From the IMG/VR virus record IMGVR_UViG_3300021599_002865: a DNA stretch of 64,000 nt; one strand, written 5' to 3'. The notes beneath the pieces were generated by a model, which ran no database searches, was not told the DNA's origin, and worked only from the letters and a program-made list of their open reading frames with translations. Origin of the DNA: an uncultured virus (IMG/VR IMGVR_UViG_3300021599_002865) (lineage: Duplodnaviria; Heunggongvirae; Uroviricota; Caudoviricetes). Position numbers and translations under genes: made by a program. This document shows positions 6,301 through 29,764 of this stretch, piece after piece (positions within the stretch are counted from its first letter, which is position 1; every line of letters starts with the position of its first letter).

Positions 6301-6780
6301 ATGGATGTAAAATATTTTTTAAAGGTATTAGAAAAAGAGGGTTATCCAAATCCTGACATTCAATCTATTGCCAAGATGGTTGGATACAACTTAGATTATT
6401 TTCTCCTTGGTATAAGAGACAGAGTTGGTGAGGAAGGTGTAATCGATTTTTGTGAAAAAGCAATAAATAAATTGCAAGGTGAAGATGGAGTCAGGGTTGA
6501 CTTGGGTGGAGACGAATATTGTTACATAAAAATATTTCCACAATACTACGACGAGAGGGAATCGGAAAATGATGTGATTGCTAAAAGTAGTTGGGGCGAT
6601 TCAAACATATTGAGTTCAGACCCAGAAACAGGTGATGAGAGCTACTTTACAATTCAAGTAGTAATCGACAATACAGACATGGGTGGTTGGAGTGACTTGG
6701 ACGAGTTATTGGACCACATCAAAGAACAAGCCTACAACATAGTATTCCAAAACTGTGGTTTCGGTGTTTGGTGGGAATAA
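6301..6780 (+). CDS. acidic hypothetical protein
   Basis: 159-aa ORF in the same operon as the upstream genes. Confidence 0.7.
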   Translation: MDVKYFLKVLEKEGYPNPDIQSIAKMVGYNLDYFLLGIRDRVGEEGVIDFCEKAINKLQGEDGVRVDLGGDEYCYIKIFPQYYDERESENDVIAKSSWGDSNILSSDPETGDESYFTIQVVIDNTDMGGWSDLDELLDHIKEQAYNIVFQNCGFGVWWE

Positions 6781-6807
6781 AAAAAAAAGGGGAGACCGAA
6801 GTCTCCC
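6779..6807 (-). terminator. intrinsic terminator
   Basis: GGGAGAC-TTCG-GTCTCCC followed by a long T run on the minus strand, between convergent genes. Confidence 0.85.
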
Positions 6808-6849
6808 AATAGGGGCTGAACGGTTTTGCCAGCCACTCCACCACCAAGT

Positions 6850-7149
6850 TTAACGAACTTGGAAACCTTTTGGAAATAATGTGTTGGCTAAAGAGGTAAG
6901 AGCCTCAGAACTTAAATATCCAACAACATCATCGTTAGCTTCAGGTAAGTAATATTTTGTCACGAAATCACCAGTCTCACTGTCCATAATTGCAATTTCG
7001 AAATCATCTTTGAAATCACCATACAACCCTTGAGCACCCCCAACAATTGAGAGTCCAATTTTTCCATCAGTCATATATGTCTGACGTGCACCCTCAACCA
7101 TATTTCTATGGGGTTTGGAGTGTTCTATAATATTTTCAATCGTTATCAT
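6850..7149 (-). CDS. hypothetical protein
   Basis: 99-aa ORF, ATGA overlap with the upstream gene. Confidence 0.7.
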   Translation of the reverse strand: MITIENIIEHSKPHRNMVEGARQTYMTDGKIGLSIVGGAQGLYGDFKDDFEIAIMDSETGDFVTKYYLPEANDDVVGYLSSEALTSLANTLFPKGFQVR

Positions 7150-7430
7150 AATCCTTTGAGTAATTGTCTTAATTTGATTTCTAAAAGTTCTAATGTGTTC
7201 TTATCCTTTGCGGTTTTATTTGGTTTTTTCCTTAACGAATCTATGAGTTCCTGTATAAAATCAGATTCACTTTTCTCTTGAACCACTTCGGCGTCCTGTA
7301 TGTCACCCATAGGTTCATCTGCAGGTGTGTAAGGTAAGGAGCTTTTTTGCCCTTTTTTCTCACCCAATTTATAGGCACCATAAACCAAGGCACCAACTGC
7401 TACTATTTTTACTAAATCACTGAATTTCAT
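7146..7430 (-). CDS. hypothetical protein with an N-terminal membrane anchor
   Basis: IVAVGALVYGAY; ATGA overlaps. Confidence 0.7.
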   Translation of the reverse strand: MKFSDLVKIVAVGALVYGAYKLGEKKGQKSSLPYTPADEPMGDIQDAEVVQEKSESDFIQELIDSLRKKPNKTAKDKNTLELLEIKLRQLLKGL

Positions 7431-7708
7431 TTTGTTACCTCCGCTTCGATTTTAGATTTATTAATAAGATGGTCAGTTAAAGAATAGAAATCAAGTTTAG
7501 TCATAACAATTGAATTAACCAAATGTTTGTGTGGGATATGAACCAAGAAATCCACACCATTGAAGAAGGTTAAATCAGTTTTCATCTCAATTGAACTTTG
7601 AACCATTTTAAGAAAAAGTTTGAACTGAATTTGATTAACAAAAGTTTCATCCAAAAGGGTTCCGAAAGTTTCATGTAGAATTTTGATGTTGAGACCTGAC
7701 ATGTTCAT
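7427..7708 (-). CDS. hypothetical protein
   Basis: First gene after promoter 7724-7754. Confidence 0.7.
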   Translation of the reverse strand: MNMSGLNIKILHETFGTLLDETFVNQIQFKLFLKMVQSSIEMKTDLTFFNGVDFLVHIPHKHLVNSIVMTKLDFYSLTDHLINKSKIEAEVTK

Positions 7709-7723
7709 ATTCTTTAATTTCTA

Positions 7724-7754
7724 CAAAGATAAACTTTTAAATTCAATTACCAAA
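7724..7754 (-). promoter_or_regulatory. Bacteroidota-type promoter
   Basis: TTTG-N19-TATCTTTG. Confidence 0.7.
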
Positions 7755-7816
7755 AAAAATTACATTTTGGCTCCGTTTTTCAATCCTGAATGAAACTTGT
7801 TTGTATTTATCTAAGT

Positions 7817-9952
7817 ATGTCAAATCCCGTTATAATTATTGGTCAACAAAGAATTGTAAAAAAAACTGAGAAAATTTCTTTTTCCAATCCTACTGACTCT
7901 GTCATAACAATAAATTATCAGAAGAGTTCGAATTTTCAGTGGGTTTACCAAGACGAAATACTACCTCAACAATCCAAAAGGATTTGGGCTGTTCCATCAT
8001 CAATACAAATTCCAAATTACTTTTCTGAGAATTTAGTTAGTCAAGATGACGGAGATATATTAAACATGATACAGACATATTCTTTGGGGGATGTTGTGAA
8101 TGTCAACACCGAATCTTGTTATGTATATGAATACCCATATCCGTTTCCAGTCACTTTAAGAATTTCAAGTGAATATGCCTTACCACCCAACGTTAATATA
8201 GATTATAGAATTGCAACATACAATCCTCCTTACATCGACCCAACAGTGTTCAACGGTATTCCTTGGACAAATTTAGTAACGAATTTTCAAGTTGGTGAGT
8301 GTCCCAATTATAACTTAGCAGGAACTGTTTATATCTCTTCTCCTTCTTTGGCTATCCAATATAGAGTGAGGGACTTATCTGACAATAGATTGAATTACTA
8401 TTACATTATTTACCCTGAAACCTGTTTCGGACCTGGAGAGGACCCTTGTAACATCAATTCAATACCTAGAATTTGGGACTTATTATTTTCTGGTTGTTCT
8501 ATAGATGGTATTTCGATTTATTTATTTGAACCATCCCAAATTCCCTTCGCTCAAGATGTTTGGATGGTATTGAAATCTCCTCCAGGAAACATAACCAACT
8601 GCACTACCCCAACTCCAACATCGACCGTTACACAAACACCAACCAACACTCAAACACCAACAAATACTTCTACACAAACTCCAACGCCAACTAACACTCA
8701 AACACCTACCAACACCTCTACCCCGACTCCAACGCCAACTAACACTCAAACACCTACCAACACTCAAACACCTACCAACACTCAAACACCTACACAGACC
8801 CCTCCTGTTTACTATTATTCAGCTCTTCTATGTGGGGACCCATCTTTCTTGAGATATTTCCGTTCGTCGAATCCAAATTTAACCGACAGTTGTTCTGTAA
8901 TTTACGGTTATTGTGATGAGGCACCTCATACTGAATGTGGGGGAGTTCCTCAATGTTTTGATAATGTAAGCCCTTCGGTTGTCGTGAATTCGAATGATGT
9001 TTTAGAATGTTTCGATAGTTGTGAGTGTTGTCAGGGACTTTGTCCAACACCATCCCCAACTCCTACAATAAACCCGACCTCAACACCAACACCGACCACG
9101 ACACCATCTCTAACCCCTACATTGACCTCAACTCCTACATTAACTCCTACATCGACCTCGACCTCTACACCAACACCAACAACCAGTCCGACAGTCACAG
9201 GCACACTTACTCCTACACCAACACAAACGAGACTTGCCGATTGTTATCAAAAAATTTATTTCGATGTAACATTAACTGAAACTTTTTTCAGTTACACAGA
9301 TTGTTGTAGTGGAGAAGTAAATATCCTGAGCGTTGAAGCTGGTGTTGATTCTTGGGGTGCACCCGAGGGTTGTATAGAATATGGTTCAGTAACTGTTATT
9401 TCAGGTGAGTTCAATAATTTGTATTATAATTCACCTTGTGCGTGTCCGACACCCACACCAACATTGACAGCCTCTAATACTCCAACTCCAACAACTACTA
9501 ACACACCAACATTGACCGCTTCTAATACTCCAACTCCAACAACTACTAGTACACCAACTAACTCACCAACAACTACCAACTCACCTACACCAACGCTTAC
9601 ACAGACTCCGACGGCCTCTGTAACTCAAACTCCTACACCAACACAAACAGAACCAACAGTTACACAGTCTGTAACACCATCTCAAACACCTACGCAATCA
9701 TTTGTATTTTACCCTTATTCAGTTACCTCAGGACAAACTTTTGTATCGATAGATTGTAATCCTGTTGTTTTAACTCAGACCTTATATGCCGCAGAATCAA
9801 GTTGGTATACAATTACCAAATTTTATTCAGATTCAAACCTAACAACACCATACAATGGTAATGACTTGTATTATACCAACAACACTTTAGGTTCCTCCGA
9901 TTGGTATAGAATCGCAACGAATGGTTCAATAACTGATAGCTACGGTTGTTAA
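7817..9952 (+). CDS. probable virion-surface protein with three Pro/Thr-rich linkers separating Cys-rich modules
   Basis: TQTPTN/TPTPT repeats at ~8605-8800, 9045-9230 and 9445-9700; Cys-rich modules between them; ATG 6 nt after TATTTAT. Confidence 0.7.
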   Translation: MSNPVIIIGQQRIVKKTEKISFSNPTDSVITINYQKSSNFQWVYQDEILPQQSKRIWAVPSSIQIPNYFSENLVSQDDGDILNMIQTYSLGDVVNVNTESCYVYEYPYPFPVTLRISSEYALPPNVNIDYRIATYNPPYIDPTVFNGIPWTNLVTNFQVGECPNYNLAGTVYISSPSLAIQYRVRDLSDNRLNYYYIIYPETCFGPGEDPCNINSIPRIWDLLFSGCSIDGISIYLFEPSQIPFAQDVWMVLKSPPGNITNCTTPTPTSTVTQTPTNTQTPTNTSTQTPTPTNTQTPTNTSTPTPTPTNTQTPTNTQTPTNTQTPTQTPPVYYYSALLCGDPSFLRYFRSSNPNLTDSCSVIYGYCDEAPHTECGGVPQCFDNVSPSVVVNSNDVLECFDSCECCQGLCPTPSPTPTINPTSTPTPTTTPSLTPTLTSTPTLTPTSTSTSTPTPTTSPTVTGTLTPTPTQTRLADCYQKIYFDVTLTETFFSYTDCCSGEVNILSVEAGVDSWGAPEGCIEYGSVTVISGEFNNLYYNSPCACPTPTPTLTASNTPTPTTTNTPTLTASNTPTPTTTSTPTNSPTTTNSPTPTLTQTPTASVTQTPTPTQTEPTVTQSVTPSQTPTQSFVFYPYSVTSGQTFVSIDCNPVVLTQTLYAAESSWYTITKFYSDSNLTTPYNGNDLYYTNNTLGSSDWYRIATNGSITDSYGC

Positions 9953-9990
9953 AAAAACAAAAAACCCCACCAGTAGAAACTGACGGGGTT
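9951..9990 (-). terminator. intrinsic terminator ending the ncRNA transcript
   Basis: Imperfect hairpin AACCCCGTCAGT-TTCT-ACTGGTGGGGTT followed by a T-rich run on the minus strand. Confidence 0.8.
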
Positions 9991-9999
9991 GGCAAAAAA

Positions 10000-10840
10000 C
10001 TCTGAGAATACAAGTTTTGGTGAGAATCTTTGGAAGGATTATGATTTCCCTTCGTTTCCACTTCCTTTTGAGAAGTAATCCTCAGTCACGGTCAATTAGA
10101 TTAACCAATCCTTAAGTTGTGTACCACTCTCTCGTTACTCATCACTCTTCGAGGTTGCCACCCCAATTAATCCTTGCGGGATTAGAGAACTTTCAAGAAA
10201 ATCCTGTCGGGCTTGGGACCCTTCAAGGCTAAGAACATCTCTTAACTATGTAGTGACCTGTCGCACACAACTGACGAGCACTTTTCCTTGTTTAATTTTG
10301 AGTTTGTTAAACCTTAATTAACAAAGTTGGTTTACGGATGATGAAAGTAGCGGCCCGTCTGAAGCCATGCCATCTTTTGGACGACACGATACTAAGCTAC
10401 TCTCTGAAGTCTCCCGACCTCCATATTTTGAGTCAACTTCATAACTAACCTCTTGGTAGAGAGAAAGTTAAGGTTCCATCAGCACCACCTGTTATGAAAC
10501 TTACCTTGTTCGGTGTTAAGCCAACTCTAATATTGAATCACGCAATTACTATGGTGGATGCCATAGTTTCTTACATTAATCCTTCAGGTTATTCTTATTG
10601 GTGTTCCCACCTCAATCAAACGACCCGTATCGCTTGATTACCCAACCACGTTCCCTACAGTGTCACCCTCAGTACTAAAGGTCAGATAATATCCTGATTG
10701 CCTACTCGAGTTCCCTTTCGGAAACCGCAGACCTCCCAAACCAGGGAGTTCCACTTTATACTATTTTCATAGTTTATTTAATGACCATAGGCGGCCAATA
10801 TCTTGAACAGAATGTCTCAGAATAAACCCGAAGGTTTCAT
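10000..10840 (-). ncRNA. large structured ncRNA of ~820-840 nt, GOLLD-like
   Basis: No ORF of 60 aa or more inside (one shadow ORF overlaps the 3' edge); long-range closing helix TCTGAGA (10815-10821) / TCTCAGA (10001-10007); hairpins with GGAA, GAAA, GCAA and UUCG loops and G-U pairs that work only on the minus strand; promoter, boxA-like site and tRNA upstream; terminator downstream. Family assignment rests on size and context. Confidence 0.7.
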
Positions 10841-10870
10841 CATCAACTAACTGTGAAGATAATATCTTAA

Positions 10871-10880
10871 TTCAAAGAAC
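10871..10880 (-). promoter_or_regulatory. boxA-like antitermination element
   Basis: GTTCTTTGAA just upstream of the large RNA; related copies at 11075-11085 and 11311-11320. Confidence 0.5.
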
Positions 10881-10960
10881 TTTCAAATTTAAAGGGAAGA
10901 AGAATCTTGACGACCATCCGAAGTTGGAACACTTACAACTCCTCCCCTTCAATTGTTTCA

Positions 10961-10992
10961 CAAAGTTAAGACACGTTTTTGGAACTGTCAAA
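10961..10992 (-). promoter_or_regulatory. Bacteroidota-type promoter P3 of the RNA island
   Basis: TTTG-N20-TAACTTTG. Confidence 0.75.
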
Positions 10993-11109
10993 TCTTTTTG
11001 AAACTTTTTTTGACTTTTTCTGATTCGATTCTAATACCCCCCACTCTTAATGGGACAGGTTCAAATTCAGTCTTTGTCAAAGAACATACGACTCTCATCG
11101 TGTGTTTTA

Positions 11110-11141
11110 CAAAGATAAGAAGGTTTTTTTAAACTCTCAAA
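11110..11141 (-). promoter_or_regulatory. Bacteroidota-type promoter P2 of the RNA island
   Basis: TTTG-N20-TATCTTTG. Confidence 0.75.
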
Positions 11142-11152
11142 TCTTTTTTTTG

Positions 11153-11225
11153 TTGCGTCGCCTTGGAATCGAACCAAGCTAAGTGGGCTTATGAGACCCA
11201 TGGAACACCTTGCCCCCCGCCCGCA
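11153..11225 (-). tRNA. tRNA with CAT anticodon (Met/fMet or Ile2), atypical
   Basis: T arm CTTGG-TTCGATT-CCAAG; anticodon arm TGGGT-CTCATAA-GCCCA; D arm GGGGC-AAGGT-GTTCC; irregular acceptor stem; no encoded CCA. Confidence 0.75.
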
Positions 11226-11346
11226 ATATAATGATTAACTCCTACTTACCCCTCGGTCACCTATCCACGTCATGCGCTGGTTGAACCAGCAGGAGTCATC
11301 ATTTCAATATTTTTAAGAACTATGTTGTTTTGAAAAAGAAGTCCCA

Positions 11347-11378
11347 CAAATATACGGAGATTTTCTCAAATAACCAAA
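11347..11378 (-). promoter_or_regulatory. Bacteroidota-type promoter P1 of the RNA island, enclosed by an inverted repeat
   Basis: TTTG-N20-TATATTTG; flanked by AGTCCCAC/GTGGGACT (11340-11389). Confidence 0.7.
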
Positions 11379-11508
11379 TTCGTGGGACTATTATTTCGAG
11401 ATTACTCTTTTATTCATCTCGAGTGTTTGGGGTGTTCGTCCTCTCGGACATGAACATATAAATATTCCGAAAAGTTCAAAAAGTAACCCTAAGAAAAAAT
11501 ATTTTTTT

Positions 11509-11613
11509 TTAGTGGTCCAAATCGTCAACCATTCTTCTGAGTTGTCTCATCATATCGAACCATCCTATGATTCCTATAACGATGACAAACATAATTAAAC
11601 CTAATACAATCAT
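11509..11613 (-). CDS. 34-aa membrane peptide (MIVLGLIMFVIVIGIIGWFD...), not in the ORF track
   Basis: ATGA overlap with the NUDIX stop codon; single hydrophobic helix. Confidence 0.5.
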   Translation of the reverse strand: MIVLGLIMFVIVIGIIGWFDMMRQLRRMVDDLDH

Positions 11614-12029
11614 TGTAAAATAATTTCAGCTAATTTATACATATAGTCACCTGTGTTTTCAGCACGGATTTCATCGAAACTGAAATACTTCCAATCAGTA
11701 TGTTCTTCTCCGTCAATGGCTTTCTCGAAATCTGGTTCAATACATTCTTCAACAATTAACAAATACACATACATCAACCCTTTAACTTTTTTACCGTCAC
11801 GAGTGTGTCTTGGAATGAGTCCAATAAAAGTAATTTCTTGGTCATCGATACTAACCGCTGTTTCTTCGAAAAATTCGCGTTTGGCACCTTCTTGTGTTGT
11901 TTCATTTTCTTCGAGTTTTCCACCTGGAATCGACCACATACCTGGGAAAGAACCGAGATTGTTTCTTTTACATAGTAAAACTTTATCCTTACATTTTACC
12001 ATAATTCCTACATAGCTTTGTTGTTTCAT
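11610..12029 (-). CDS. NUDIX hydrolase
   Basis: Nudix box GGKLEENETTQEGAKREFFEETA. Confidence 0.9.
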   Translation of the reverse strand: MKQQSYVGIMVKCKDKVLLCKRNNLGSFPGMWSIPGGKLEENETTQEGAKREFFEETAVSIDDQEITFIGLIPRHTRDGKKVKGLMYVYLLIVEECIEPDFEKAIDGEEHTDWKYFSFDEIRAENTGDYMYKLAEIILQ

Positions 12030-12043
12030 TGTATTTATTAAAT

Positions 12044-12391
12044 ATGATTGTTGAAATTAATGAAAATTATTTTAATGTTAAAACATTGGTTGACCCAAAA
12101 TCCCAAGCTATTGGGATGATGAGAAGAAAATTCGATGATTCATTCAATGGTTTATTATTTTTAATGGGTGGTAAAAAACAATGTTTTTGGATGAAAAATT
12201 GTATCATCCCACTTGATATAATAATGATAAAAAATAATGTTATTGTCAATATACATCACGACTGTCCTCCTTGTTTAGAGGAACCTTGTCCGAGTTATTG
12301 TGGAAATGGAAATATCGTATTAGAACTCGAGGGTGGGACCTGTGAAATGTTAGGGATTGAAGCTGGAGATACGGTAGAATATATCTTCTAA
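12044..12391 (+). CDS. DUF192 family protein
   Basis: GMM.R....GLLF....FWMKNC.IPLDII...VLELEGG...GI..GD.V. Confidence 0.85.
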   Translation: MIVEINENYFNVKTLVDPKSQAIGMMRRKFDDSFNGLLFLMGGKKQCFWMKNCIIPLDIIMIKNNVIVNIHHDCPPCLEEPCPSYCGNGNIVLELEGGTCEMLGIEAGDTVEYIF

Positions 12392-14544
12392 ACTGTGAAA
12401 TCTCTCACAAAAAATTTACTTGACCTCATTCTCAAAAATATTGTTTTTGGTTTCTCAGGCACTGTTCCAAAAAATGGTATTGTGGTTGAACCTATACTAA
12501 TATCTGAAATACCACCTGCTTTAGCAACATCTACTGCAAAGGTTGCACAATTCGAATCACCACCCTCTGTCAAATCTATGAATGAGTAACTTCTTGGTTT
12601 ACTAGCCTCGTTCACAGAGTCTGTGAAATTAGGTAATCTCATAACATTTGTCCACATTGTTAGATTTGGACCGTCTTTGAAAGTTTTGGCTTTACAAGTT
12701 CTTGCAACATCACCAGCATTTGTGAAGTTTCCTTGTGAATCTATAGTCGCAATTTTCCCCATTTCAGTTTTCAAAACCTTTCCGTTTCCATCGTTATCGT
12801 AAGGTCCAAACTCATATAATTTTACAATACCTGTATGGTCAACTAAAATACAACCTCCATGTCCAGTGGCATATATTTTGATTTCTCTCTTTCCAACTTG
12901 TTCATTCAAACCTAAATAATCCTCTACCCACTCCAATGCTCTTCCGTGGAATGCTAATATGCGAGCAATCCAAGAATCTGTCATTGAAGGTCTATATTTC
13001 GGAAAAACAAAGAACATAAAAAAACCTGATTGATTTTTGTCTATGGGTTGAAGTGACTTAAAAACAAAATCATCCTTCTGTCTTGCAATTGATAAACTTG
13101 GTACTCTAATGTCCCCCGAAGAGGGATTGTACTGTTCCTCCAATTTTGACTCAGATTGAGAAATTTTTTCCTTTAACTTTCTGAAGAAATCTGAAGCCAA
13201 CATTTTTGTAAATTTTACATATGGTGCATCTTCTCTTTCAGGGTCATATCTATATTGACCTTCGGGTGGTCTTTTGGACCTACCAAGATAGTTCAATCCA
13301 CTTATATTCGTGATACACTTGTGACCTCCAGAGTTTGCGTTGATTAATTCCCAAGCACTTACATTAATATTATCTAAGATACTTTTTTCTTCATCTGTTA
13401 ATGATGTAAATGGTTTTGACATCATTTCTTTAAGTCTATTCAAAGCCTCTTCTCCTCTTTCTTGTTCTGCAAATTTTTCACCATAAACCGCATTAAAATC
13501 CTCGAATGTAAACCCAACACTTTCAGGGTTAACACCTGTTTCACTAATCCATTTTATCGTTGATAACGGGACTTTTCTTTCCTTGAGTTGAGCTTCATAC
13601 TTTGCAATGACCTCTTTAGCAATCTCTCCGAGATTAACACCTTTGAGCTTCCTTTCCTTTTTAAAAGGATTGCATGATACTTGAAGTAATCCCATCGGCC
13701 ATGCCATGATGAGAAAGTCTGCTTCAGGGTTATTTCTAAATGGGGTATACCTGTCATAAGAGCCAGGCTTAACCATACTACCTCCACCATATTGGTAAAT
13801 GATATTATCTTCAACATGGGGAAATCCTTTCATTTGTTTTGCATAATCTTGTGCGTGTTTTTGTAGTTCTTCTGGTTTTGGTGCATTTGTATCTTTCATC
13901 CATGTTTTGATGTTACTAAGTATATTCATCAAAGATGGTTCTGAATTCATTACAAGTCGCTCCAAAAATCCTTTCTTGTTTTTGAATGCTAAAATGAGTT
14001 TGTTTATAACGAAACCCAATAACATTTTGTTTCTTTGTAACGGCTTTTCTTTATCTAATCTAAAAAGATAATTGACTACCTCCTCGGGACTTATATCTTG
14101 TCTAGCGAAATCTGCGGAGTCAACAGTGTTAATCAATAAAACGTCAGATGAGGGAAATAAATCTTTGGGTGAAATTATTTGTGAGATTGTTTCCACGTTT
14201 GAACGTGCTTGTCTAAATGATTTCGAAGCACCTTTTTCCGCACCTATTTGTTTGTCATGATGGTCCGTGTGGATAACGAACATTGGTTTACCATGAGCAA
14301 AGTCAACCAAAACAGGCATGGTATCACCCTTAGCGTCATTCTTCTTAACCGCAAATTCTTTTTCCCCATATTGTATTACGTGAACATCTACCACATCAAT
14401 ACCATTGTTCTCAAGGTATTTTTTCATCGCAATAGCAGTAGTTACACCATCTAAATCTTGGTGGAAATATATTTCAGCCTTCGGGTATCTTTTTCTTAAT
14501 GCGGAAATATCTCTTAAACCTGTCTCAGTTATTAGGTTCTTCAT
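12388..14544 (-). CDS. DHH-family phosphoesterase fused to a C-terminal permuted papain-like domain
   Basis: FHQDLDG, VDF, TDHH, SGGH; C-terminal TGHGG...YEFGPY...SNCATF. Confidence 0.75.
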   Translation of the reverse strand: MKNLITETGLRDISALRKRYPKAEIYFHQDLDGVTTAIAMKKYLENNGIDVVDVHVIQYGEKEFAVKKNDAKGDTMPVLVDFAHGKPMFVIHTDHHDKQIGAEKGASKSFRQARSNVETISQIISPKDLFPSSDVLLINTVDSADFARQDISPEEVVNYLFRLDKEKPLQRNKMLLGFVINKLILAFKNKKGFLERLVMNSEPSLMNILSNIKTWMKDTNAPKPEELQKHAQDYAKQMKGFPHVEDNIIYQYGGGSMVKPGSYDRYTPFRNNPEADFLIMAWPMGLLQVSCNPFKKERKLKGVNLGEIAKEVIAKYEAQLKERKVPLSTIKWISETGVNPESVGFTFEDFNAVYGEKFAEQERGEEALNRLKEMMSKPFTSLTDEEKSILDNINVSAWELINANSGGHKCITNISGLNYLGRSKRPPEGQYRYDPEREDAPYVKFTKMLASDFFRKLKEKISQSESKLEEQYNPSSGDIRVPSLSIARQKDDFVFKSLQPIDKNQSGFFMFFVFPKYRPSMTDSWIARILAFHGRALEWVEDYLGLNEQVGKREIKIYATGHGGCILVDHTGIVKLYEFGPYDNDGNGKVLKTEMGKIATIDSQGNFTNAGDVARTCKAKTFKDGPNLTMWTNVMRLPNFTDSVNEASKPRSYSFIDLTEGGDSNCATFAVDVAKAGGISDISIGSTTIPFFGTVPEKPKTIFLRMRSSKFFVRDFTV

Positions 14545-17455: not shown

Positions 17456-17879
17456 AGTCTAAAACTTTTTTTGCAGATACCTCAACACTTTCATTTGTGG
17501 TGTCGATACTAAGATATCTTTCGGTAGGTGCCTCATATTCTTTAACAAAGAAACTTTCTCTTCCTCTTACCTCTGTTGTATGAATATAAACCTCAACCAT
17601 ATTATCCCCCATCTTCTGTTTGAACTTGTCTCGTTGGTCTTTGTAAGGGGAAACCAACGATACTAATACATCTTTACCTTTGTTGTGAAGGTATTGAGCG
17701 ATTTGTTGTGCGAGTTCTATGTTCTTTCTTCTCCCTGTTTCAGAATAATCTTTATTATCGAATAAATCTCTTAGGTCATCACCGTCGATATGAAATATTC
17801 TATGGTCTCTAATGTCCAAGATTTCGTTACAGATTGTTGTTTTGCCAGCACCAGGCTGTCCTGTTAACCAGTATATCAT
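17430..17879 (-). CDS. cysC: adenylyl-sulfate (APS) kinase
   Basis: WLTGQPGAGKTT, IDGDDLR, R..NI, SLVSPY...R, YEAP. Confidence 0.85.
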   Translation of the reverse strand: MIYWLTGQPGAGKTTICNEILDIRDHRIFHIDGDDLRDLFDNKDYSETGRRKNIELAQQIAQYLHNKGKDVLVSLVSPYKDQRDKFKQKMGDNMVEVYIHTTEVRGRESFFVKEYEAPTERYLSIDTTNESVEVSAKKVLDYAKNSRRG

Positions 17880-18058
17880 TTTTTGTCCTCCAATTGTTTT
17901 ATTCTCAATTCATTAACGAATGATGAACCCATCCAAAGAAGTGTAATGAACTGCCAAGTAAAGTCTTTACCATCAATAAAAGAAAGTATTATCGAACCTA
18001 TCACACCAATAAAACCTAACAAGAAACAGGTCTTTGCTAGTAAACTCAATTTATTCAT
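17876..18058 (-). CDS. small two-TM membrane protein
   Basis: Two hydrophobic segments; overlaps its neighbours. Confidence 0.6.
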   Translation of the reverse strand: MNKLSLLAKTCFLLGFIGVIGSIILSFIDGKDFTWQFITLLWMGSSFVNELRIKQLEDKK

Positions 18059-18278
18059 TTTCTAAATTTTGTATTTTTCGGTTTAAGTAAAATGAAGCCT
18101 TTTTGAGGTCTTCTAATTCTTTTGAAGAATCTTTTTTACCGGCTCTTGCAACGTATTTGACTACATTGAAGAGATATGCATCTTTGTGTAACTCCCAAGC
18201 CTCACAAACTTTAATCACCTCGTAAGGATTTTCTTCTCCACCATAATGATTCGGGTGGTTTACCATTTCTTTACTCAT
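18051..18278 (-). CDS. DUF3310 family protein
   Basis: VNHPNHY...YEVI...NVVKYVARAGKK...EDLKKA.FYL. Confidence 0.85.
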   Translation of the reverse strand: MSKEMVNHPNHYGGEENPYEVIKVCEAWELHKDAYLFNVVKYVARAGKKDSSKELEDLKKASFYLNRKIQNLENE

Positions 18279-18481
18279 TATCTAGCATTTAAAGTTGAAT
18301 CTGAGATTTGACTGTGATTTGTGGGATATGAATCCAATTCTTTTTTTATGAACTCTTCTTGGATGTGATTTTGATTTTCATAGTTAACCAAATAAATTAT
18401 AATTGTTACCCAAGAAGCTAACAAAATAGACAAGTATATTTTAAGTCCATCATCTAATTTGTTCATTTTTTTGAGCCCCAT
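18278..18481 (-). CDS. small membrane protein (true start may be MNKLDD at 18466)
   Basis: One TM helix; stop/start overlap. Confidence 0.5.
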   Translation of the reverse strand: MGLKKMNKLDDGLKIYLSILLASWVTIIIYLVNYENQNHIQEEFIKKELDSYPTNHSQISDSTLNAR

Positions 18482-18588
18482 TTGTTTTCCATGTATTCAA
18501 TATATCTATGAGTCTTATTTCCATTATACAACATCCATACAATGTAATAGTCAAACCACCAATCTATTTTTTTTAATATTTTTTTCAA
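18463..18588 (-). CDS. 41-aa hypothetical protein (MKKILKKIDWWFDYY...), not in the ORF track
   Basis: TTG start; fills a gap; ATGA overlap with the next gene. Confidence 0.45.
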   Translation of the reverse strand: MKKILKKIDWWFDYYIVWMLYNGNKTHRYIEYMENKWGSKK

Positions 18589-18593
18589 TGTAA

Positions 18594-18782
18594 TTAAATT
18601 TCTTCTACGTTTTGAACGTGAAAGTCTTCACCTCCTGATGTTTCTTTTTGCCAATGGTCGTCATTGTCATCAATCTCACCACTCTCAACCATTTCGATTG
18701 CCTCATCTTCAGTCTCGGCTTCAACGGTGTAGGTGACATATTCATCAATAGTTCTCACACCTACGATTGTGAATCTTTTCAT
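18594..18782 (-). CDS. small acidic hypothetical protein
   Basis: VEAETEDEAIE pattern; tight operon packing. Confidence 0.6.
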   Translation of the reverse strand: MKRFTIVGVRTIDEYVTYTVEAETEDEAIEMVESGEIDDNDDHWQKETSGGEDFHVQNVEEI

Positions 18783-18783
18783 A

Positions 18784-18999
18784 TTATAAAAAGTATTTTT
18801 GTAATGTTTCTAATTTATCATCGGCATCCACCAACATTTGGAGTGCTTCTTCAGCATTTTTATAGAAATCTCCTGTAGAGTGGTCTCCAATTCCTGATGC
18901 ATGATTTGATAACAATTCCAAAGTAAGTAATGCTTTGGCTTTTTGTGCTTCAGCTTCTAAACGAAGCATTTCGATTAAATGATTCTTAACGTTTCCCAT
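18784..18999 (-). CDS. hypothetical protein
   Basis: GIGDHS motif in a helical protein; tight packing. Confidence 0.65.
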   Translation of the reverse strand: MGNVKNHLIEMLRLEAEAQKAKALLTLELLSNHASGIGDHSTGDFYKNAEEALQMLVDADDKLETLQKYFL

Positions 19000-19232
19000 T
19001 ATTGTTTGTTTTTATGTTTTTCAGATTTTTGACCCTTCTTGTAGGGTTTCTTTTCTACTTGTTCGGTTACTTGCTCTGTAGTTTTAGTTTTACGGTTTAC
19101 AAGTTTCCATTCTGATTTGGGAATATATGCCCACATACTCCCAACCATGTTGTAAGCGGTTTTGTCATCAACTCTTTTGATGTCACCGACCTCAACGTCT
19201 TTCGATGCTTTTAAAGCTTTAATACACTTCAT
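18999..19232 (-). CDS. basic hypothetical protein
   Basis: Operon packing. Confidence 0.6.
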   Translation of the reverse strand: MKCIKALKASKDVEVGDIKRVDDKTAYNMVGSMWAYIPKSEWKLVNRKTKTTEQVTEQVEKKPYKKGQKSEKHKNKQ

Positions 19233-19431
19233 TGGTTTTTTCCTCCATGTTTTTTATAGTTAATAGAATTTCTTTTTCGTTTTTTCCACTTTTGTAATAT
19301 TCATAAACTTTTGAACTCAGTTCATCTTCAAAAATTAACATATCACTTTTTCCATAATAATCTTTAAGACTATTGTTTTCAAGTGCTTTCAATGTGTATT
19401 CAGCTGAAATAATTCTTTTGTTGAATCCCAT
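19219..19431 (-). CDS. hypothetical protein
   Basis: MGFNKR start; operon packing. Confidence 0.6.
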   Translation of the reverse strand: MGFNKRIISAEYTLKALENNSLKDYYGKSDMLIFEDELSSKVYEYYKSGKNEKEILLTIKNMEEKTNEVY

Positions 19432-19449
19432 AAAACAAAAATAATAATT

Positions 19450-20229
19450 TTATAGTTCAGAGTCAAAATTATTTATTTTTTCTAAATTAACAATCTGAAA
19501 AACGTATGCCATTATTTTTCTTTTCATTATGGGTAAGAAAGTTTCCTCCATTGGGAAATCATTCGTGGACTTCAATTCAAAAATAGGTAAATCTTTAAAA
19601 TGTTCTTCTTCATTCCAAGTTGAGAAGGTTTCTATAATTGAGTTCAACGTTACATCACTTGGTAATGTGTTGTATATGAGGTTTAAATAAATTTTACTAT
19701 TGAAATTCTCGTTCTCGGGTTTTTTTATTTCATATTCCCAAATGAAAATTTCATTCAAGGATTTTTTGAAATAGTAAACATACCCCTTCCCCGCGGCTAA
19801 ATTATTTTTATTTCTTTTGAGACTGAGGTCCATGTGGTCGTAAGCCATGTTCCAAATTGACTTAGCCATATTGAAGGCGTCAAATAATTTGTTACCAGAA
19901 TATTTGATTGTCTTGTCAAGTTCATTGGATTCAGAATCACTTAATTGTCTTGGTTTTTTTTGAACCAATTCTTTAAGAAGAATCTCATCATCACATGACT
20001 CGAATGTCTTATTTGTAAGTAGTAACCTATTTTCTTTGACAAGTGATTGTATGTTAGCCAAATGAAGTGAAAGTTCTACAAAGTCAGGATAAATTTGTAG
20101 ATTGTTGAAATTGTTTTCGCACTTCTGAAGGTAATCCAATAAAGTATATTTGTTGTATTCGAAGTCAACAGGTTTTTTCAACATCCAATCGGGCTTCAAT
20201 CTGAACGGTTGTTTCTTTTGTCTAGCCAT
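19450..20229 (-). CDS. hypothetical protein
   Basis: 259-aa ORF. Confidence 0.75.
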   Translation of the reverse strand: MARQKKQPFRLKPDWMLKKPVDFEYNKYTLLDYLQKCENNFNNLQIYPDFVELSLHLANIQSLVKENRLLLTNKTFESCDDEILLKELVQKKPRQLSDSESNELDKTIKYSGNKLFDAFNMAKSIWNMAYDHMDLSLKRNKNNLAAGKGYVYYFKKSLNEIFIWEYEIKKPENENFNSKIYLNLIYNTLPSDVTLNSIIETFSTWNEEEHFKDLPIFELKSTNDFPMEETFLPIMKRKIMAYVFQIVNLEKINNFDSEL

Positions 20230-24986: not shown

Positions 24987-25016
24987 AAAAAAGGGATTTT
25001 TAAATCCCTTTTTTTC
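24985..25016. terminator. bidirectional intrinsic terminator between convergent genes
   Basis: A8-GGGATTT-TT-AAATCCC-T7. Confidence 0.8.
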
Positions 25017-27342
25017 CGCTTGCTAACATTTCCAATTTTTCTAATTTCCTTTCATGGAAATCTAAAAGGGTGGATTGTTCTTTGATTGCCTCTAAACAAG
25101 CTGATATAATCGTTTCAAATCTTATTGATAACATTGTGGTTTCTGGGTCTTCATAAACGAGTTCAGGAAATACCAACTGCAACTCTTGTGCAATAAAACC
25201 TATCTGAAGTAACTCGGGTCTTTCATCATCTTTTATTAGATGGTAGGAAACACCTCTAGTCTTTAATATTTTGTCCAAACTATCTGTAATTGGTCTGATA
25301 TTAGTTTTGAACCTTAAATCCGATGGTCCAGGTGCACCTGATGCACCTTGTGCCCCTGTTGGTCCTGTGCCACCTTGTGGACCAGTTCCACCACCTCCAC
25401 CTTGAGCACCTTGTGGACCTGTTCCTCCTGTTCCACCACCAGTCCCTTGAGCACCTTGATTACCCGTAGGACCGGTTGGTCCTCCAGGACCTTGAGCACC
25501 TTGTGCACCTTGGTTTCCATTACCTTGTGATGGACCTTGGGCTCCTTGAGAACCAGTTCCACCTCCTCCACCAGGAGGTCCTGTGTGACCTTGAGCTCCC
25601 TGTGGACCTCGGTTACCCGTTGGTCCGCCAGGACCCTGAGCACCTTGTGCTCCGCCAGGACCCTGAGCACCTTGTCCACCTTGAGAACCTTGAGCTCCTT
25701 GAGCTCCTGTTGCACCACCACCACCTTGAGAACCTTGTCCTCCCTGTGAACCTTGGGCTCCTTGGTTTCCACCACTGCCTTGAGCTCCTTGCGCACCTTG
25801 TCCTCCTGCCGGTCCTTGTGCTCCTTGGTTACCTTTACCACCTTGAGCTCCTTGCGCACCTTGTCCTCCTGCCGGTCCTTGTGCTCCTTGGGCTCCTCCT
25901 GGGCCTTGAGCTCCTTGCGCACCTTGTCCTCCTGTTGGTCCCTGAGCTCCTTGGTTACCTTTACCACCTTGTGCTCCTTGAGCACCTTGTCCTCCTTGAG
26001 AACCTTGTGAACCTGTGGCACCTACAGGCCCCTGTGCTCCTTGTGCTCCCTGTCCACCTTGTGAACCTTGACCACCTTTGGCACCTTGTGAACCTTGTCC
26101 TCCTTGAGCTCCTTGTCCACCTGTTGGTCCTTGTGCTCCTTGATTACCACCCGAACCTTGCGCTCCTTGAGCTCCTTGTCCACCTGTTGGTCCTGTAGCA
26201 CCCTTACCACCTTGAGAACCTTGTCCTCCTTGAGCTCCTTGTCCACCTGTTGGTCCTTGAGCTCCTTGATTACCACCCGAACCTTGCGCTCCTTGAGCTC
26301 CTTGTCCACCCTGTGAGCCTTGGGAACCTGTGGCACCCGCAGAACCTACTGGACCTTGTGCTCCTTGGCCTCCCTGCGAACCTTGTGAGCCCGTGGCCCC
26401 TTGTGCACCTACTGGCCCTTGAGCTCCCTGTCCACCTTGTGAACCTTGGGAACCTGTGGCTCCTGCTGAACCAACGGGACCCTGAGCTCCCTGTCCACCT
26501 TGTGAACCTTGTGAACCTATGGCACCTTGTGAACCTTGTCCACCTTGAGCTCCTTGTCCTCCCTGTGAACCTTGGGAACCTGTAGCTCCTTGTGACCCAA
26601 CTGGTCCTTGTGCTCCTTGACCTCCTTGTGACCCTTGGGAACCAACCGCTCCCTGAGAACCTGTGGCACCTTGAGCACCTTGACCTCCTTGTGAACCCTG
26701 AGAACCTGTAGCACCTTGTGACCCTACCGGCCCTTGAGCACCTTGTCCACCTTGTGAACCCTGAGAACCGACCGCTCCCTGTGAACCTGTGGCACCTTGA
26801 GCACCTTGACCTCCTTGTGAACCCTGAGAACCAGTATCGCCTTGTGCACCTATTGCACCCTGAGCACCTTGACCACCTTGTGCGCCTTGTGGACCTACAG
26901 CACCTTGGGAACCTTGTGAGCCAGTAATACCTTGAGCCCCTGTTGGACCTTGTGCTCCTTGACCCCCTTGTGAACCTTGAGCACCTTGACCACCTGTCAC
27001 TCCCTGGGAACCTTGATTTCCTTGAGCACCTTGTCCCCCTTGAAAACCAATACTACCTTGAGCACCAGTTGGTTCTCTATTACCAACCCATCCTGTAGAG
27101 TTGATAAGTGTTCCTGCTGAATTTTTTAAACTAGTTGTTATCTTGAGGTTACTATTGTAAGTTACAAATGAAGGTTTATCACTTCTCCAAGCAAGATAAA
27201 CAATATTACTATTATCTGTCCAATGCAAATGTAGTAGTGGTGAATCGTCTTCAAGCTTCAAATATGTTGAGGTTGAGCCAGAATCAACGAATTCGACCGT
27301 GGGAAACGCATAATCAGGATATATTATTATATTTTCAGACAC
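25000..27342 (-). CDS. collagen-like fibre protein C with a C-terminal peptidase S74 chaperone domain
   Basis: ~194 G-X-Y triplets (aa 93-674), then [12 protein letters not shown]...IGFIAQE...PELV and a coiled coil. Confidence 0.9.
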
Positions 27343-29764
27343 TTAAATTATCTTTTAAAATTTTTATTCTCTCCATTATTGAGATTATTCTTTTCTGTTG
27401 TTCTTGAAGTGCACCAATACCCAAACTTACCATAAGACCATATTCAACTGATTTAAAGCCCTCCTCGTCTGTCCAAACAACTTCTGGGACGATATCTTCA
27501 ATTTGCTGTGCAATAAAACCTATTGTTTCACCAGTAAATGCACTTGGAAGAGATATTGCACGGTTCATTGATATTTTAGGATGGTCAACCCATTCGAATC
27601 TAACACCCTCAATACCTTTAACTTTTTCTAATACATTTGTTAAGGATTGAATATTATCTTTAAGTCTTTGGTCTGAAGGTGGACCCTGAGCTCCTTGAGC
27701 TCCTTGACCTCCTGTTGGACCAGTTCCACCCTGAGGACCTGTAGGTCCTACGTTACCTTGAGCACCTTGACCACCTTGGCCCCCACCTGAACCTGTAGCA
27801 CCTTGGGCACCTTGACCCCCTTGACCACCACCCGAGCCTTGAGCCCCTTGGGCTCCCGTAGCTCCTGGTCCTCCACCAGGCCCCACTGCTCCTTGGGCAC
27901 CTTGTCCTCCTGTTCCTCCTGTAGGTCCTGTTGGTCCCTGTGCTCCTTGGAATCCTGTTGCACCTCCCCCTCCTGTTCCACCTTGAGCCCCAACAGGACC
28001 CTGAGCGCCTTGAGCTCCCTGAGCACCACCCTGTGCTCCTTGAGCACCTGTGGAACCACCTCCACCTTGGCTTCCTTGAGCACCTGTAGTTCCACCTTGA
28101 GCTCCTTGAGCACCTGTTGGTCCTTGAGCACCTTGGTTACCTTGTGCACCTTGGTTACCACCTTGAGCTCCTTGGGCTCCTTGTGAACCTTGGACACCAG
28201 GAGCACCTTGTGCACCCGTATTTCCTCCTTGGGCTCCTTGAGCTCCTTGTGAACCTTGGACACCAGGAGCACCTTGTGCACCTGTTGAAGCTCCTTGAGC
28301 TCCCTGAGCCCCTTGAGAGCCCTGAACACCAGGAGCTCCCTGTGCTCCCGTTGAACCACCTTGAGCTCCTTGGGCTCCTTGGGCACCCTGATTACCTGTC
28401 GCACCTTGGGCACCTGTTGAACCACCTTGAGCACCCTGTGAACCTTGTGCCCCTTGTGCTCCAGTATTACCTTGAGCTCCTGTATTGGCTCCTTGTGCTC
28501 CTTGAGCACCTTGTGGTCCTTGTGCACCTTGGTTTCCTTGTGCACCTGTATTGGCTCCTTGTGCTCCTTGAGAGCCTTGAGCTCCTTGAGCACCTGTATT
28601 ACCTTGAGCTCCTGTATTGGCTCCTTGTGCACCTTGAGCACCTTGTGGTCCTTGTGCACCTTGGTTTCCTTGTGCACCTGTTGAAGCACCCTGTGCACCT
28701 TGCGCTCCCTGTCCTCCTTGTGAGCCTTGACCACCTTGAGCACCTGTTGTTCCTCCTTGGGCTCCTTGTGCTCCTGTTCCACCTTGAGCTCCTTGACCTC
28801 CTTGTGCCCCCGTGGTTCCCCCTTGGGCTCCTTGAGCACCCTGTCCTCCTTGTGAACCTTGAGCTCCTTGGGCTCCTGTTGTTCCTCCTTGTGCTCCTTG
28901 AGAACCTTGTGCACCTTGTGCTCCAGTTGAACCCTGAGCACCTGTTGTTCCTCCTTGAGCTCCTTGAGCTCCTTGTCCTCCTTGTGCCCCCTGTGCACCC
29001 TGAGCACCTGTTGTTCCTCCTTGGGCTCCTTGTGCACCTTGTCCTCCTTGGGCTCCTTGTGCACCCTGAGCACCTGTATTAGCTCCCTGAGCTCCTTGTG
29101 AACCCTGTCCTCCTTGTGCTCCTTGAGCTCCTTGAGCACCAATTGTTCCACCTTGAGCACCTTGAGCACCTTGTCCTCCTTGTGCACCTTGTGAACCCTG
29201 AGCACCTGTGTTAGCTCCTTGAGCACCTTGAGCTCCTTGACCACCTTGAGCTCCTTGACCACCTTGAGCTCCCGTATCCGCTCCTTGAGCTCCCTGTGCT
29301 CCCTGTCCACCCGTAGCACCTTGAGCTCCTTGAGGTCCTATCGAACCTTGTGAACCTTGAGCACCTACATTTCCTATTGCTCCCTTAGCACCTTGAGAAC
29401 CTTGCGCTCCTTGAGCACCTATTGACCCCTGAGAGCCTGTAGTTCCTGAAGCACCTTGTGCTCCTTGAGCACCGGTAAATCCAGATATACCCTCAGCAGG
29501 TCCTACCCATTCGCCAACTTCATTAATCATTTCTATACCACCCACATACAATCCATATATTCCTCCGGTGACCTTTGCACCATCAACGAGTAATTCAGCT
29601 CCGATAGTTGCTATGTTACTTTTTGTTGTTGATGAAACTTGGATATTTCCAGAACCATTAACAGATAATTGTATTTTGTCCGCGGATGAAATCCCTTCAA
29701 ATTCCATATGAGGGTTAGGGTTTCCACCACTTTTACCATTGGGATATATTATAACGTCAGACAT
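27335..29764 (-). CDS. collagen-like fibre protein B with periodic interruptions and a peptidase S74 domain
   Basis: 195 units (aa 92-696), including 20 G-X-X-X units spaced 22 aa apart; SDQRLKDNI...IGFIAQQ...PEVV. Confidence 0.9.

Follow-up and report, generated by a model that had tools for sequence, protein, structure and literature searches.

A full-length GOLLD RNA in the closed 321-kb genome of an uncultured freshwater phage

GOLLD RNAs and the copy in the window

The GOLLD family of phage RNAs was described in 2009. Here we analyze a stretch of 64,000 nucleotides (nt), hereafter the window, from an uncultured virus of the Caudoviricetes (IMG/VR record IMGVR_UViG_3300021599_002865). The best overall explanation of our results, which we hold with high confidence, is that positions 10799-9999 on the minus strand of the window are a GOLLD RNA gene in the complete 321-kb genome of a freshwater phage. 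The copy is full-length, with both domains present.

A structure of a GOLLD cage was published in 2025 (PMC12286853). According to the available excerpts of that paper, the 833-nt env-38 GOLLD forms a closed 14-mer cage with D7 symmetry, as resolved by cryo-electron microscopy, in which the 5' regions make up the caps, the ring is built from the 3' regions, and the variable linker lies disordered in the interior. Its chains are joined by kissing loops and A-minor contacts, and the env-38 gene was found downstream of a Met-tRNA. The same excerpts report that GOLLD genes often lie near tRNA islands, that GOLLD expression rises during phage lysis, and that ribosomes were co-recovered with GOLLD in a pull-down. 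They also describe ROOL, another large RNA of phages and prophages that is often near tRNAs and forms RNA-only cages (PMC12286853). A second paper, likewise in excerpt, lists the env-38 structure as PDB 9MEE and describes a Streptococcus agalactiae GOLLD of 700 nt that forms a 12-mer and whose 3' domain alone forms a 10-mer (PMC12990946). This RNA lacks P9, P11a-c, and P21b and is ~100 nt shorter; J13/15 is given there as a single-stranded inter-domain region that sometimes has a tRNA inside (PMC12990946).

The window RNA resembles env-38 in its complete match to the family model, its two domains with a variable linker, its length (~800 versus 833 nt), its origin in water samples, and the presence of a Met-type tRNA relative upstream. 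Its adjacent CGCAA and GGCA hairpins also resemble P21a and P21b, the loops being matched by description. It differs from env-38 in that the upstream tRNA is a non-canonical look-alike recognized by neither ARAGORN nor Rfam, and in that the gene ends at its own terminator rather than running into tRNAs. The S. agalactiae RNA (9L0R) belongs to the same family and shares the architecture of the conserved 3' domain, whereas the window RNA has two hairpins at the presumed place of P21a and P21b and a longer 5' domain. ROOL differs in both sequence and fold.

Searching the window against Rfam returned a match to the GOLLD model RF02032 at 10404-9999 on the minus strand, spanning positions 1-416 of 416 with 322.1 bits (gathering score 150, E = 1.9e-91) and a posterior probability of 0.98, and the match was not cut off. 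Across the 64 kb of the window, GOLLD alone among Rfam families exceeded its cut-off; ROOL, OLE, HEARO, and group I and II introns gave no match reaching theirs. Within 9800-11650, other matches at E-values up to 1 scored no higher than 28 bits, all under their cut-offs, and lax thresholds applied to 9800-11650 and 10820-11560 yielded nothing credible except GOLLD. A search of the whole phage genome with RF02032 found this single copy. The model spans only the 3' half of the RNA, and the 5' half lies outside it.

Homologous loci, cited here by L numbers, were collected by scanning IMG/VR with a degenerate pattern from the 3' domain, which gave at least 119 loci, 116 of which were also matched by BLAST with 10900-9960. 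Among the matches listed, 59 distinct sequences aligned over ~810 nt (10807-9995) at 64-84% identity, four other IMG/VR records were identical to the window over all 941 nt, and in 73 of the 80 loci with complete flanks the 5' domain aligned over 300 nt or more. Of the seven others, six were shortened by a contig end and one (L075) had no BLAST match at all. Both halves aligned contiguously in 68 of the 80 flanked loci. The 73 loci imply that the 5' domain is common to the entire environmental subfamily sampled. Comparing 9960-10900 with 50,697 deposited phage genomes by blastn ("distant") gave no match, a result that is uninformative about the family because GOLLD is too divergent for blastn.

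A sequence-only reading, made from the letters of the window before these searches, had assigned the region to a giant structured minus-strand phage RNA of GOLLD type. The 322.1-bit match and the homology of the 5' domain bear this assignment out, and the Rfam covariance-model search that the reading had proposed is the one that gave the complete RF02032 match. It had also allowed for a new class of large RNA and held that a full-length GOLLD match would settle the matter; by that rule, the match confirms the RNA and therefore removes the novelty of the class. It had described GOLLD RNAs as phage- and tRNA-associated; the locus has no canonical tRNA beside it, only the non-canonical look-alike ~355 nt upstream. 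The following features that mark GOLLD RNAs were found here: a phage-encoded gene (a virus record with terminal repeats and phage-type genes), a covarying 3' fold, a separate, less conserved 5' domain of multiple stems, and a variable linker.

Conserved fold, domain layout, and the cage model

Alignment A1 comprises 57 rows, the window and 56 distinct homologues; the truncated L070 and L056 and an identical copy, L051, were left out. RNAalifold predicted 189 pairs on A1, 143 of them with compensatory changes. The structure that we tested had 223 pairs in 40 helices, taken from our own alifold run plus one pseudoknot. In this structure 95.8% of cells were paired, compared with 38-44% when the 3' partners were slid by one to three columns. 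Both sides had changed in 161 of the 223 pairs, and none of 500 shuffles reached any of five measures. Relatedness among the sequences, and the use of one alignment both to derive and to test the structure, inflate these covariation figures; even so, they exceed the slid controls by a very wide margin. In at least 56 related phage loci, compensatory changes preserve this fold.

On the plus strand, many near-invariant G-U pairs would become A-C mismatches, for instance the pair at alignment columns 130:135, which is G-U in 57 of 57 sequences. Together with the strand of the RF02032 match, these pairs corroborate the proposed minus strand. The size of ~800 nt given for GOLLD RNAs also agrees with the conserved core, which is 799 nt long in the window (10797-9999) and 790-830 nt across the 57 aligned sequences.

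As shown in Table 1, the core consists of two domains separated by an A-rich linker. At the 5' end, the loop of hairpin P1 (10797-10782) pairs with 10693-10690 as a pseudoknot (helix 2), in which two of four pairs covary and the other two are invariant. Helix 23, where the RF02032 model starts, has a CAAAA loop in 56 of 57 sequences. The linker is closed by stems at 10359-10353/10279-10273 and 10348-10345/10283-10280; six of the seven pairs of the linker-closing helix 24 have compensatory changes, and ARAGORN found no tRNA inside 10344-10284. Helices 24-40 are 84-100% paired, and 15 of these 17 contain pairs changed on both sides. Two adjacent hairpins of the 3' domain alternate in their loops, that at 10182-10170 between CGCAA (36 sequences) and GUCGA (16), and that at 10165-10150 between GGCA (35) and CGCA (21).

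The five hairpins named within the core by the sequence-only reading are all in the consensus structure, and all covary in the 57 sequences. They correspond to helix 5 (10726-10709, with 5/7 pairs compensatory), helix 9 (10638-10615, 7/10), helix 10 (10611-10600, 4/4, its GGAA loop in 57/57 sequences), helices 13 and 14 (10567-10548, 7/7), and helix 34 (10182-10170, 4/4). A sixth hairpin, with a UUCG loop at 10837-10824, is present but folds no better than shuffles (-6.5 kcal/mol, z-score -1.1) and sits in the variable leader outside the conserved core.

The same reading had paired the two ends of the RNA. Seven Watson-Crick pairs are indeed available between UCUGAGA (10821-10815) and UCUCAGA (10007-10001), but they are not conserved as a helix. 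We rejected a conserved closing helix despite this complementarity on three grounds. Only 21 of 57 sequences have UGAGA in the leader, and these share one related leader type, versus UCUCA in 57 of 57 terminal loops; the listed RNA contigs end before the leader; and in the solved structure L27 finds its partners within the 3' domain. The excerpts of that structure's report have L27 pairing with P23 and J24/26 (PMC12286853), and we take L27 to be the loop of the terminal hairpin (10015-9999), an equation of our own. The leader is probably outside the mature RNA.

The two domains, the tRNA-free linker, and the paired hairpins with alternating loops lead us to infer an env-38-type cage. By analogy, copies of the window RNA would self-assemble into a closed cage made only of RNA, its 5' domains forming the caps, its 3' domains the ring, and its linker pointing inward. 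In the described cage, L21a exchanges a central GC for CG in a symmetric kissing loop and L21b is conserved (PMC12286853, in excerpt); the alternation of CGCAA and GUCGA across the family in the first hairpin fits this switch, and the GGCA/CGCA loop of the second fits the description of L21b. As for what such a cage might do, our guess is that it would target the translation machinery in the lytic phase, by retaining or protecting tRNAs, ribosomes, or a host factor. We favor a role in translation because the GOLLD family travels with tRNA and tmRNA (transfer-messenger RNA) genes and here shares an upstream box with them.

Transcription, the upstream box, and tRNA context

The terminator hairpin following the core folds at -16.4 kcal/mol (z-score -3.75), better than all of 200 shuffles. 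The five nearest homologues in A1 (L021, L024, L014, L013, and L067) are followed by comparable hairpins whose stem letters differ. The sequence-only reading had given the RNA both a promoter and a terminator of its own; the terminator is solid, while the promoter, a TTGAAA-16-TATTAT match, is plausible but such sites occur at shuffle frequency.

Twenty public sequencing runs hold the stretch, six of which are metatranscriptomes from five studies. The DNA runs hold 88-98% of the words of 9950-10900, and the six RNA runs hold 57-63% of sampled words. Labels of the DNA runs are lake water or freshwater metagenome, plus four labelled "fungus metagenome". We compared four of the metatranscriptome runs (X15, X16, X18, and X19, from four studies) with window positions 9000-12400 as assembled contigs. 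Contigs with zero differences lie within 10092-10799 in the four runs, at mean word depths of 51-130, and thus the GOLLD sequence is present letter for letter in RNA libraries. Among the contigs listed, the exact matches of X15, X16, and X19 (three studies) all end at position 10799, which weakly hints at a start of the abundant RNA near there (AUUGGCCG...), two bases before hairpin P1. None of the four runs has a contig on 9000-9911 or 10824-12400, and we do not count this absent cover as evidence for silent flanks or against DNA carry-over. With exact-match contigs in four metatranscriptomes, as expected of a stable GOLLD RNA, the gene is apparently expressed.

In our proposed model, GOLLD would be its own transcription unit, running from the box GTTCTTTGA with TATTAT to the terminator 9990-9955. 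Trimming of a variable 55-70-nt leader would then leave a 5' end near 10799.

The box itself, GTTCTT[AT][AG]A, is conserved across the family. In the 220 nt upstream of the core, 55 of the 57 sequences have a single copy of it, at a distance of 19-121 nt, and the two remaining sequences differ from the motif by one letter. The pair of box and TATTATCC also recurs among the homologues in A1. Across 56 loci, 71 of 109 occurrences of the box on either strand fall within 130 nt upstream of a same-strand gene, this gene being GOLLD in 54 cases and a tRNA in 17 (mostly at 12-27 nt), and random positions satisfy this criterion in 5.7% of cases. The phage's own genome has 17 copies of GTTCTTTGA, versus ~4 expected from base composition. 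Separately, we observed that five loci (L005, L071, L033, L011, and L015) have a tmRNA with the tag ANVDYSTEY[YF]AVAA directly upstream of GOLLD and a tRNA-Met directly downstream; there the box lies ~31 nt inside the ARAGORN tmRNA call and not before the gene.

We tentatively suggest that, across a broad set of uncultured freshwater phages, the box is a dedicated signal of stable-RNA genes, although we give this reading less than an even chance. It could be a compact promoter for a phage-modified or phage-encoded polymerase, or a processing site. The position of the box in a would-be sigma-70 spacer recalls the activator-box promoters of T4-like phages.

Upstream of the promoter-like region lie further elements on the same strand. 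The tRNA-Met look-alike was called neither by ARAGORN nor by Rfam, even at E-values up to 10. Its sequence can be aligned with the tRNA-Met genes upstream of GOLLD in L021, L024, and L067 and downstream of it in L073. Its anticodon loop CTCATAA (CUCAUAA) and T-loop are invariant and its T arm is kept, but the acceptor stem is interrupted and a 6-base-pair hairpin with a 3-nt loop replaces the D arm. Six sequences of this shape (five distinct) give a cloverleaf-like consensus with 8 of 22 pairs compensatory; its relatives are in L002, L043, L013, L060, and L026. An 84-nt folded element, 86% identical in L021, directly precedes the look-alike. A sigma-70-like element of ~50 nt recurs, often repeatedly, upstream of GOLLD in many other phage loci. 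A BLAST search of the phage's own genome with both of its promoter-like elements gave no further copies, only short pieces at chance level.

Several points weigh against parts of this account. ARAGORN called no tRNA in the 64-kb window; the tRNA and tmRNA genes of the phage lie at 125-161 kb (the array at 135-161 kb) and GOLLD at 252.8 kb, a separation given as ~112 kb. The promoter-like sites number 11, against 8.9 +/- 3.1 in shuffles, which is chance level, and the conserved box occupies the would-be sigma-70 spacer. Strand, level, and true ends cannot be read from contigs, and DNA may be present in an RNA library; many other contigs are only 90-95% alike and others up to 99%, which indicates that they come from related GOLLD variants. 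Cage assembly and copy number are carried over from a relative, env-38, that is not aligned to the window, and the window loops are equated with L21a and L21b by description rather than alignment. The available excerpts of the GOLLD literature (PMC12286853, PMC12990946) give no function for the cage.

With respect to tRNA linkage, 33 of 57 related loci have a tRNA or tmRNA within 1.5 kb, mostly tRNA-Met, and 24 have none so near. The existence of a complete GOLLD copy far from the tRNA array implies that tight linkage to canonical tRNAs is not required.

We weighed three other explanations. That the RNA is a new class of large structured RNA, like GOLLD only in size and context, might be argued from the ~390-nt 5' domain, which has no database name since RF02032 covers 10404-9999 only, and from the lack of a blastn match among the deposited phage genomes. 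We find this hardly credible given that the 3' half scores more than double the gathering score across the entire GOLLD model, that the 5' half is contiguous with the GOLLD match in 68 of 80 flanked loci, and that a less conserved 5' region is already described for GOLLD in the excerpts of PMC12286853. A decaying or silent GOLLD relic without a present role in the phage is also very improbable. The canonical tRNA that neighbors GOLLD in many relatives has been lost here and the inner copy of the upstream box is degenerate, but the copy matches the complete model at a posterior probability of 0.98, its row of the alignment fits the consensus structure, its 941 nt are unchanged in four other IMG/VR records, and exact-match contigs occur in the RNA libraries of four studies.

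A more serious, if still doubtful, contender is that GOLLD is the tail of a longer precursor, excised by processing as in tRNA operons. Transcription would then possibly start at the sigma-70-like promoters at 11140-11112 or 10991-10963 or before the tRNA-Met look-alike, though we consider such start points unlikely. This explanation draws on the region 9953-11609, which is without an open reading frame (ORF) of 100 amino acids (aa), and on the look-alike, the 84-nt element (z-score -2.7), and the two promoter-like elements with A-tracts that lie upstream on the same strand. A genuine tRNA-Met stands upstream of GOLLD on the same strand in L021, L024, L014, L067, L008, and L006, and the listed contigs stop at 10799, inside the stretch that any of these promoters would transcribe. 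However, 55 of 57 sequences carry the conserved box right before GOLLD, which suggests a start or signal belonging to GOLLD itself, and a hairpin at 10950-10891 followed by U-rich sequence, weakly better than shuffles (z-score -1.8), could stop upstream transcripts. We retain the reading of GOLLD as an independent transcription unit as the preferred one.

The phage genome, feature coordinates, and significance

The source record is 321,139 bp long and carries direct terminal repeats, its completeness being estimated at 100; the window corresponds to its positions 242,769-306,768. The genome encodes 24 tRNA genes, mostly in one minus-strand array, and one tmRNA gene. Phage-type genes include collagen-repeat fibre genes with an S74 chaperone domain, a DNA methylase, and an SbcC-like protein, and the neighboring genes fit a large, little-known phage. 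Three successive collagen/S74 ORFs are probably tail-fibre paralogues; their G+C content is ~0.50, versus ~0.33 elsewhere in the window.

The sequence-only reading had called the GOLLD region the only long ORF-free stretch of the window, and the region proved even larger than it had said: 9952-11610 contains zero ORFs of at least 100 aa, the longest being 82 and 59 aa. It is the only such stretch because the other two gaps in the list of 100-aa ORFs (6780-7790 and 17879-19450) are packed with abutting ORFs of 60-99 aa.

Table 1. Features of the GOLLD locus and related sites, in window coordinates unless marked as own genome.
Feature	Position	Strand	Remarks
GOLLD RNA	9999-10799	-	RF02032; ~810-nt homologues; 223-pair structure; RNA-library contigs to 10799
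5' domain, ~390 nt, helices 1-22	10797-10406	-	84-100% paired; every helix with compensatory pairs
Long hairpin, helix 23	10404-10363	-	Start of RF02032 model; 10/12 pairs compensatory
A-rich variable linker between domains, 61 nt	10344-10284	-	52-72 nt in 57 sequences; poorly conserved
3' domain, ~280 nt, conserved	10279-9999	-	RF02032; helices 24-40
Hairpin, loop CGCAA	10182-10170	-	3' domain
Hairpin, loop GGCA	10165-10150	-	3' domain
Terminal hairpin	10015-9999	-	Loop ends UCUCA, 57/57 sequences
Intrinsic terminator	9990-9955	-	12 pairs (9990-9963), 6 G-C, then U run
Variable leader with UUCG hairpin and UCUGAGA	10858-10800	-	Aligns poorly; missing in many homologues
Promoter-like region	10886-10859	-	TTGAAA 10886-10881, box GTTCTTTGA 10880-10872, TATTAT 10864-10859; 10/12 consensus matches
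Box copy GTTCTTTGA	10880-10872	-	Before GOLLD
Box copy GTTCTTTGA	11085-11077	-	
Box variant GTTCTTAAA	11320-11312	-	Before 84-nt folded element
Box copy GTTCTTTGA			16 nt before phage tmRNA gene
Box copy GTTCTTTGA			36 nt before tRNA-Glu
Box sites	Own genome 125426 and 137468; loci L002-L081		
Sigma-70-like element TTGACA-17-TAACTT	10991-10963	-	By-eye reading; upstream A-tract
Sigma-70-like element TTGAGA-17-TATCTT	11140-11112	-	Upstream A-tract
Non-canonical tRNA-Met look-alike	11224-11155	-	~355 nt upstream of GOLLD
84-nt folded element, long closed stem	11312-11229	-	-25.1 kcal/mol, z-score -2.7
Exact-match contigs, run X15	10167-10295, 10266-10339, 10310-10445, 10431-10670, 10641-10799		
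Exact-match contigs, run X16	10152-10295, 10310-10431, 10416-10727, 10698-10799		
Exact-match contigs, run X18	10095-10181, 10152-10295, 10299-10431, 10416-10727		
Exact-match contigs, run X19	10167-10295, 10366-10445, 10431-10799		
720-aa ORF, convergent	7790-9952	+	Ends at foot of GOLLD terminator
NUDIX hydrolase	11610-12029		Directly upstream of GOLLD region
Three successive large ORFs (780, 809, 874 aa)	25000-32388	-	Each with collagen triple-helix repeats and C-terminal S74 chaperone domain
tmRNA gene, tag peptide AEEATVVA	Own genome 125442-125835		
tRNA array	Own genome 134989-161483	-	

The window RNA adds no new class and is a well-preserved member of the already known GOLLD family. 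Its value lies in being a clean, complete two-domain copy with its own terminator in a closed 321-kb phage genome. The occurrence of the same sequence in the RNA libraries of four studies, together with the recurrent boundary at 10799, makes it a practical construct for structural and pull-down work. The alignment of 57 full-length relatives shows that, in this environmental subfamily, the 5' domain has been preserved no less well than the 3' domain modelled in Rfam, and therefore a full-length GOLLD model could be built.

Only the upstream box and the aberrant tRNA-Met look-alike merit a further look. The box is a testable lead on when GOLLD is expressed and alongside what. If the box is indeed a signal of stable-RNA genes, GOLLD would share a regulatory set with the tRNAs and tmRNA of the phage, and the cage RNA would for the first time be linked in its regulation to the phage translation toolkit.

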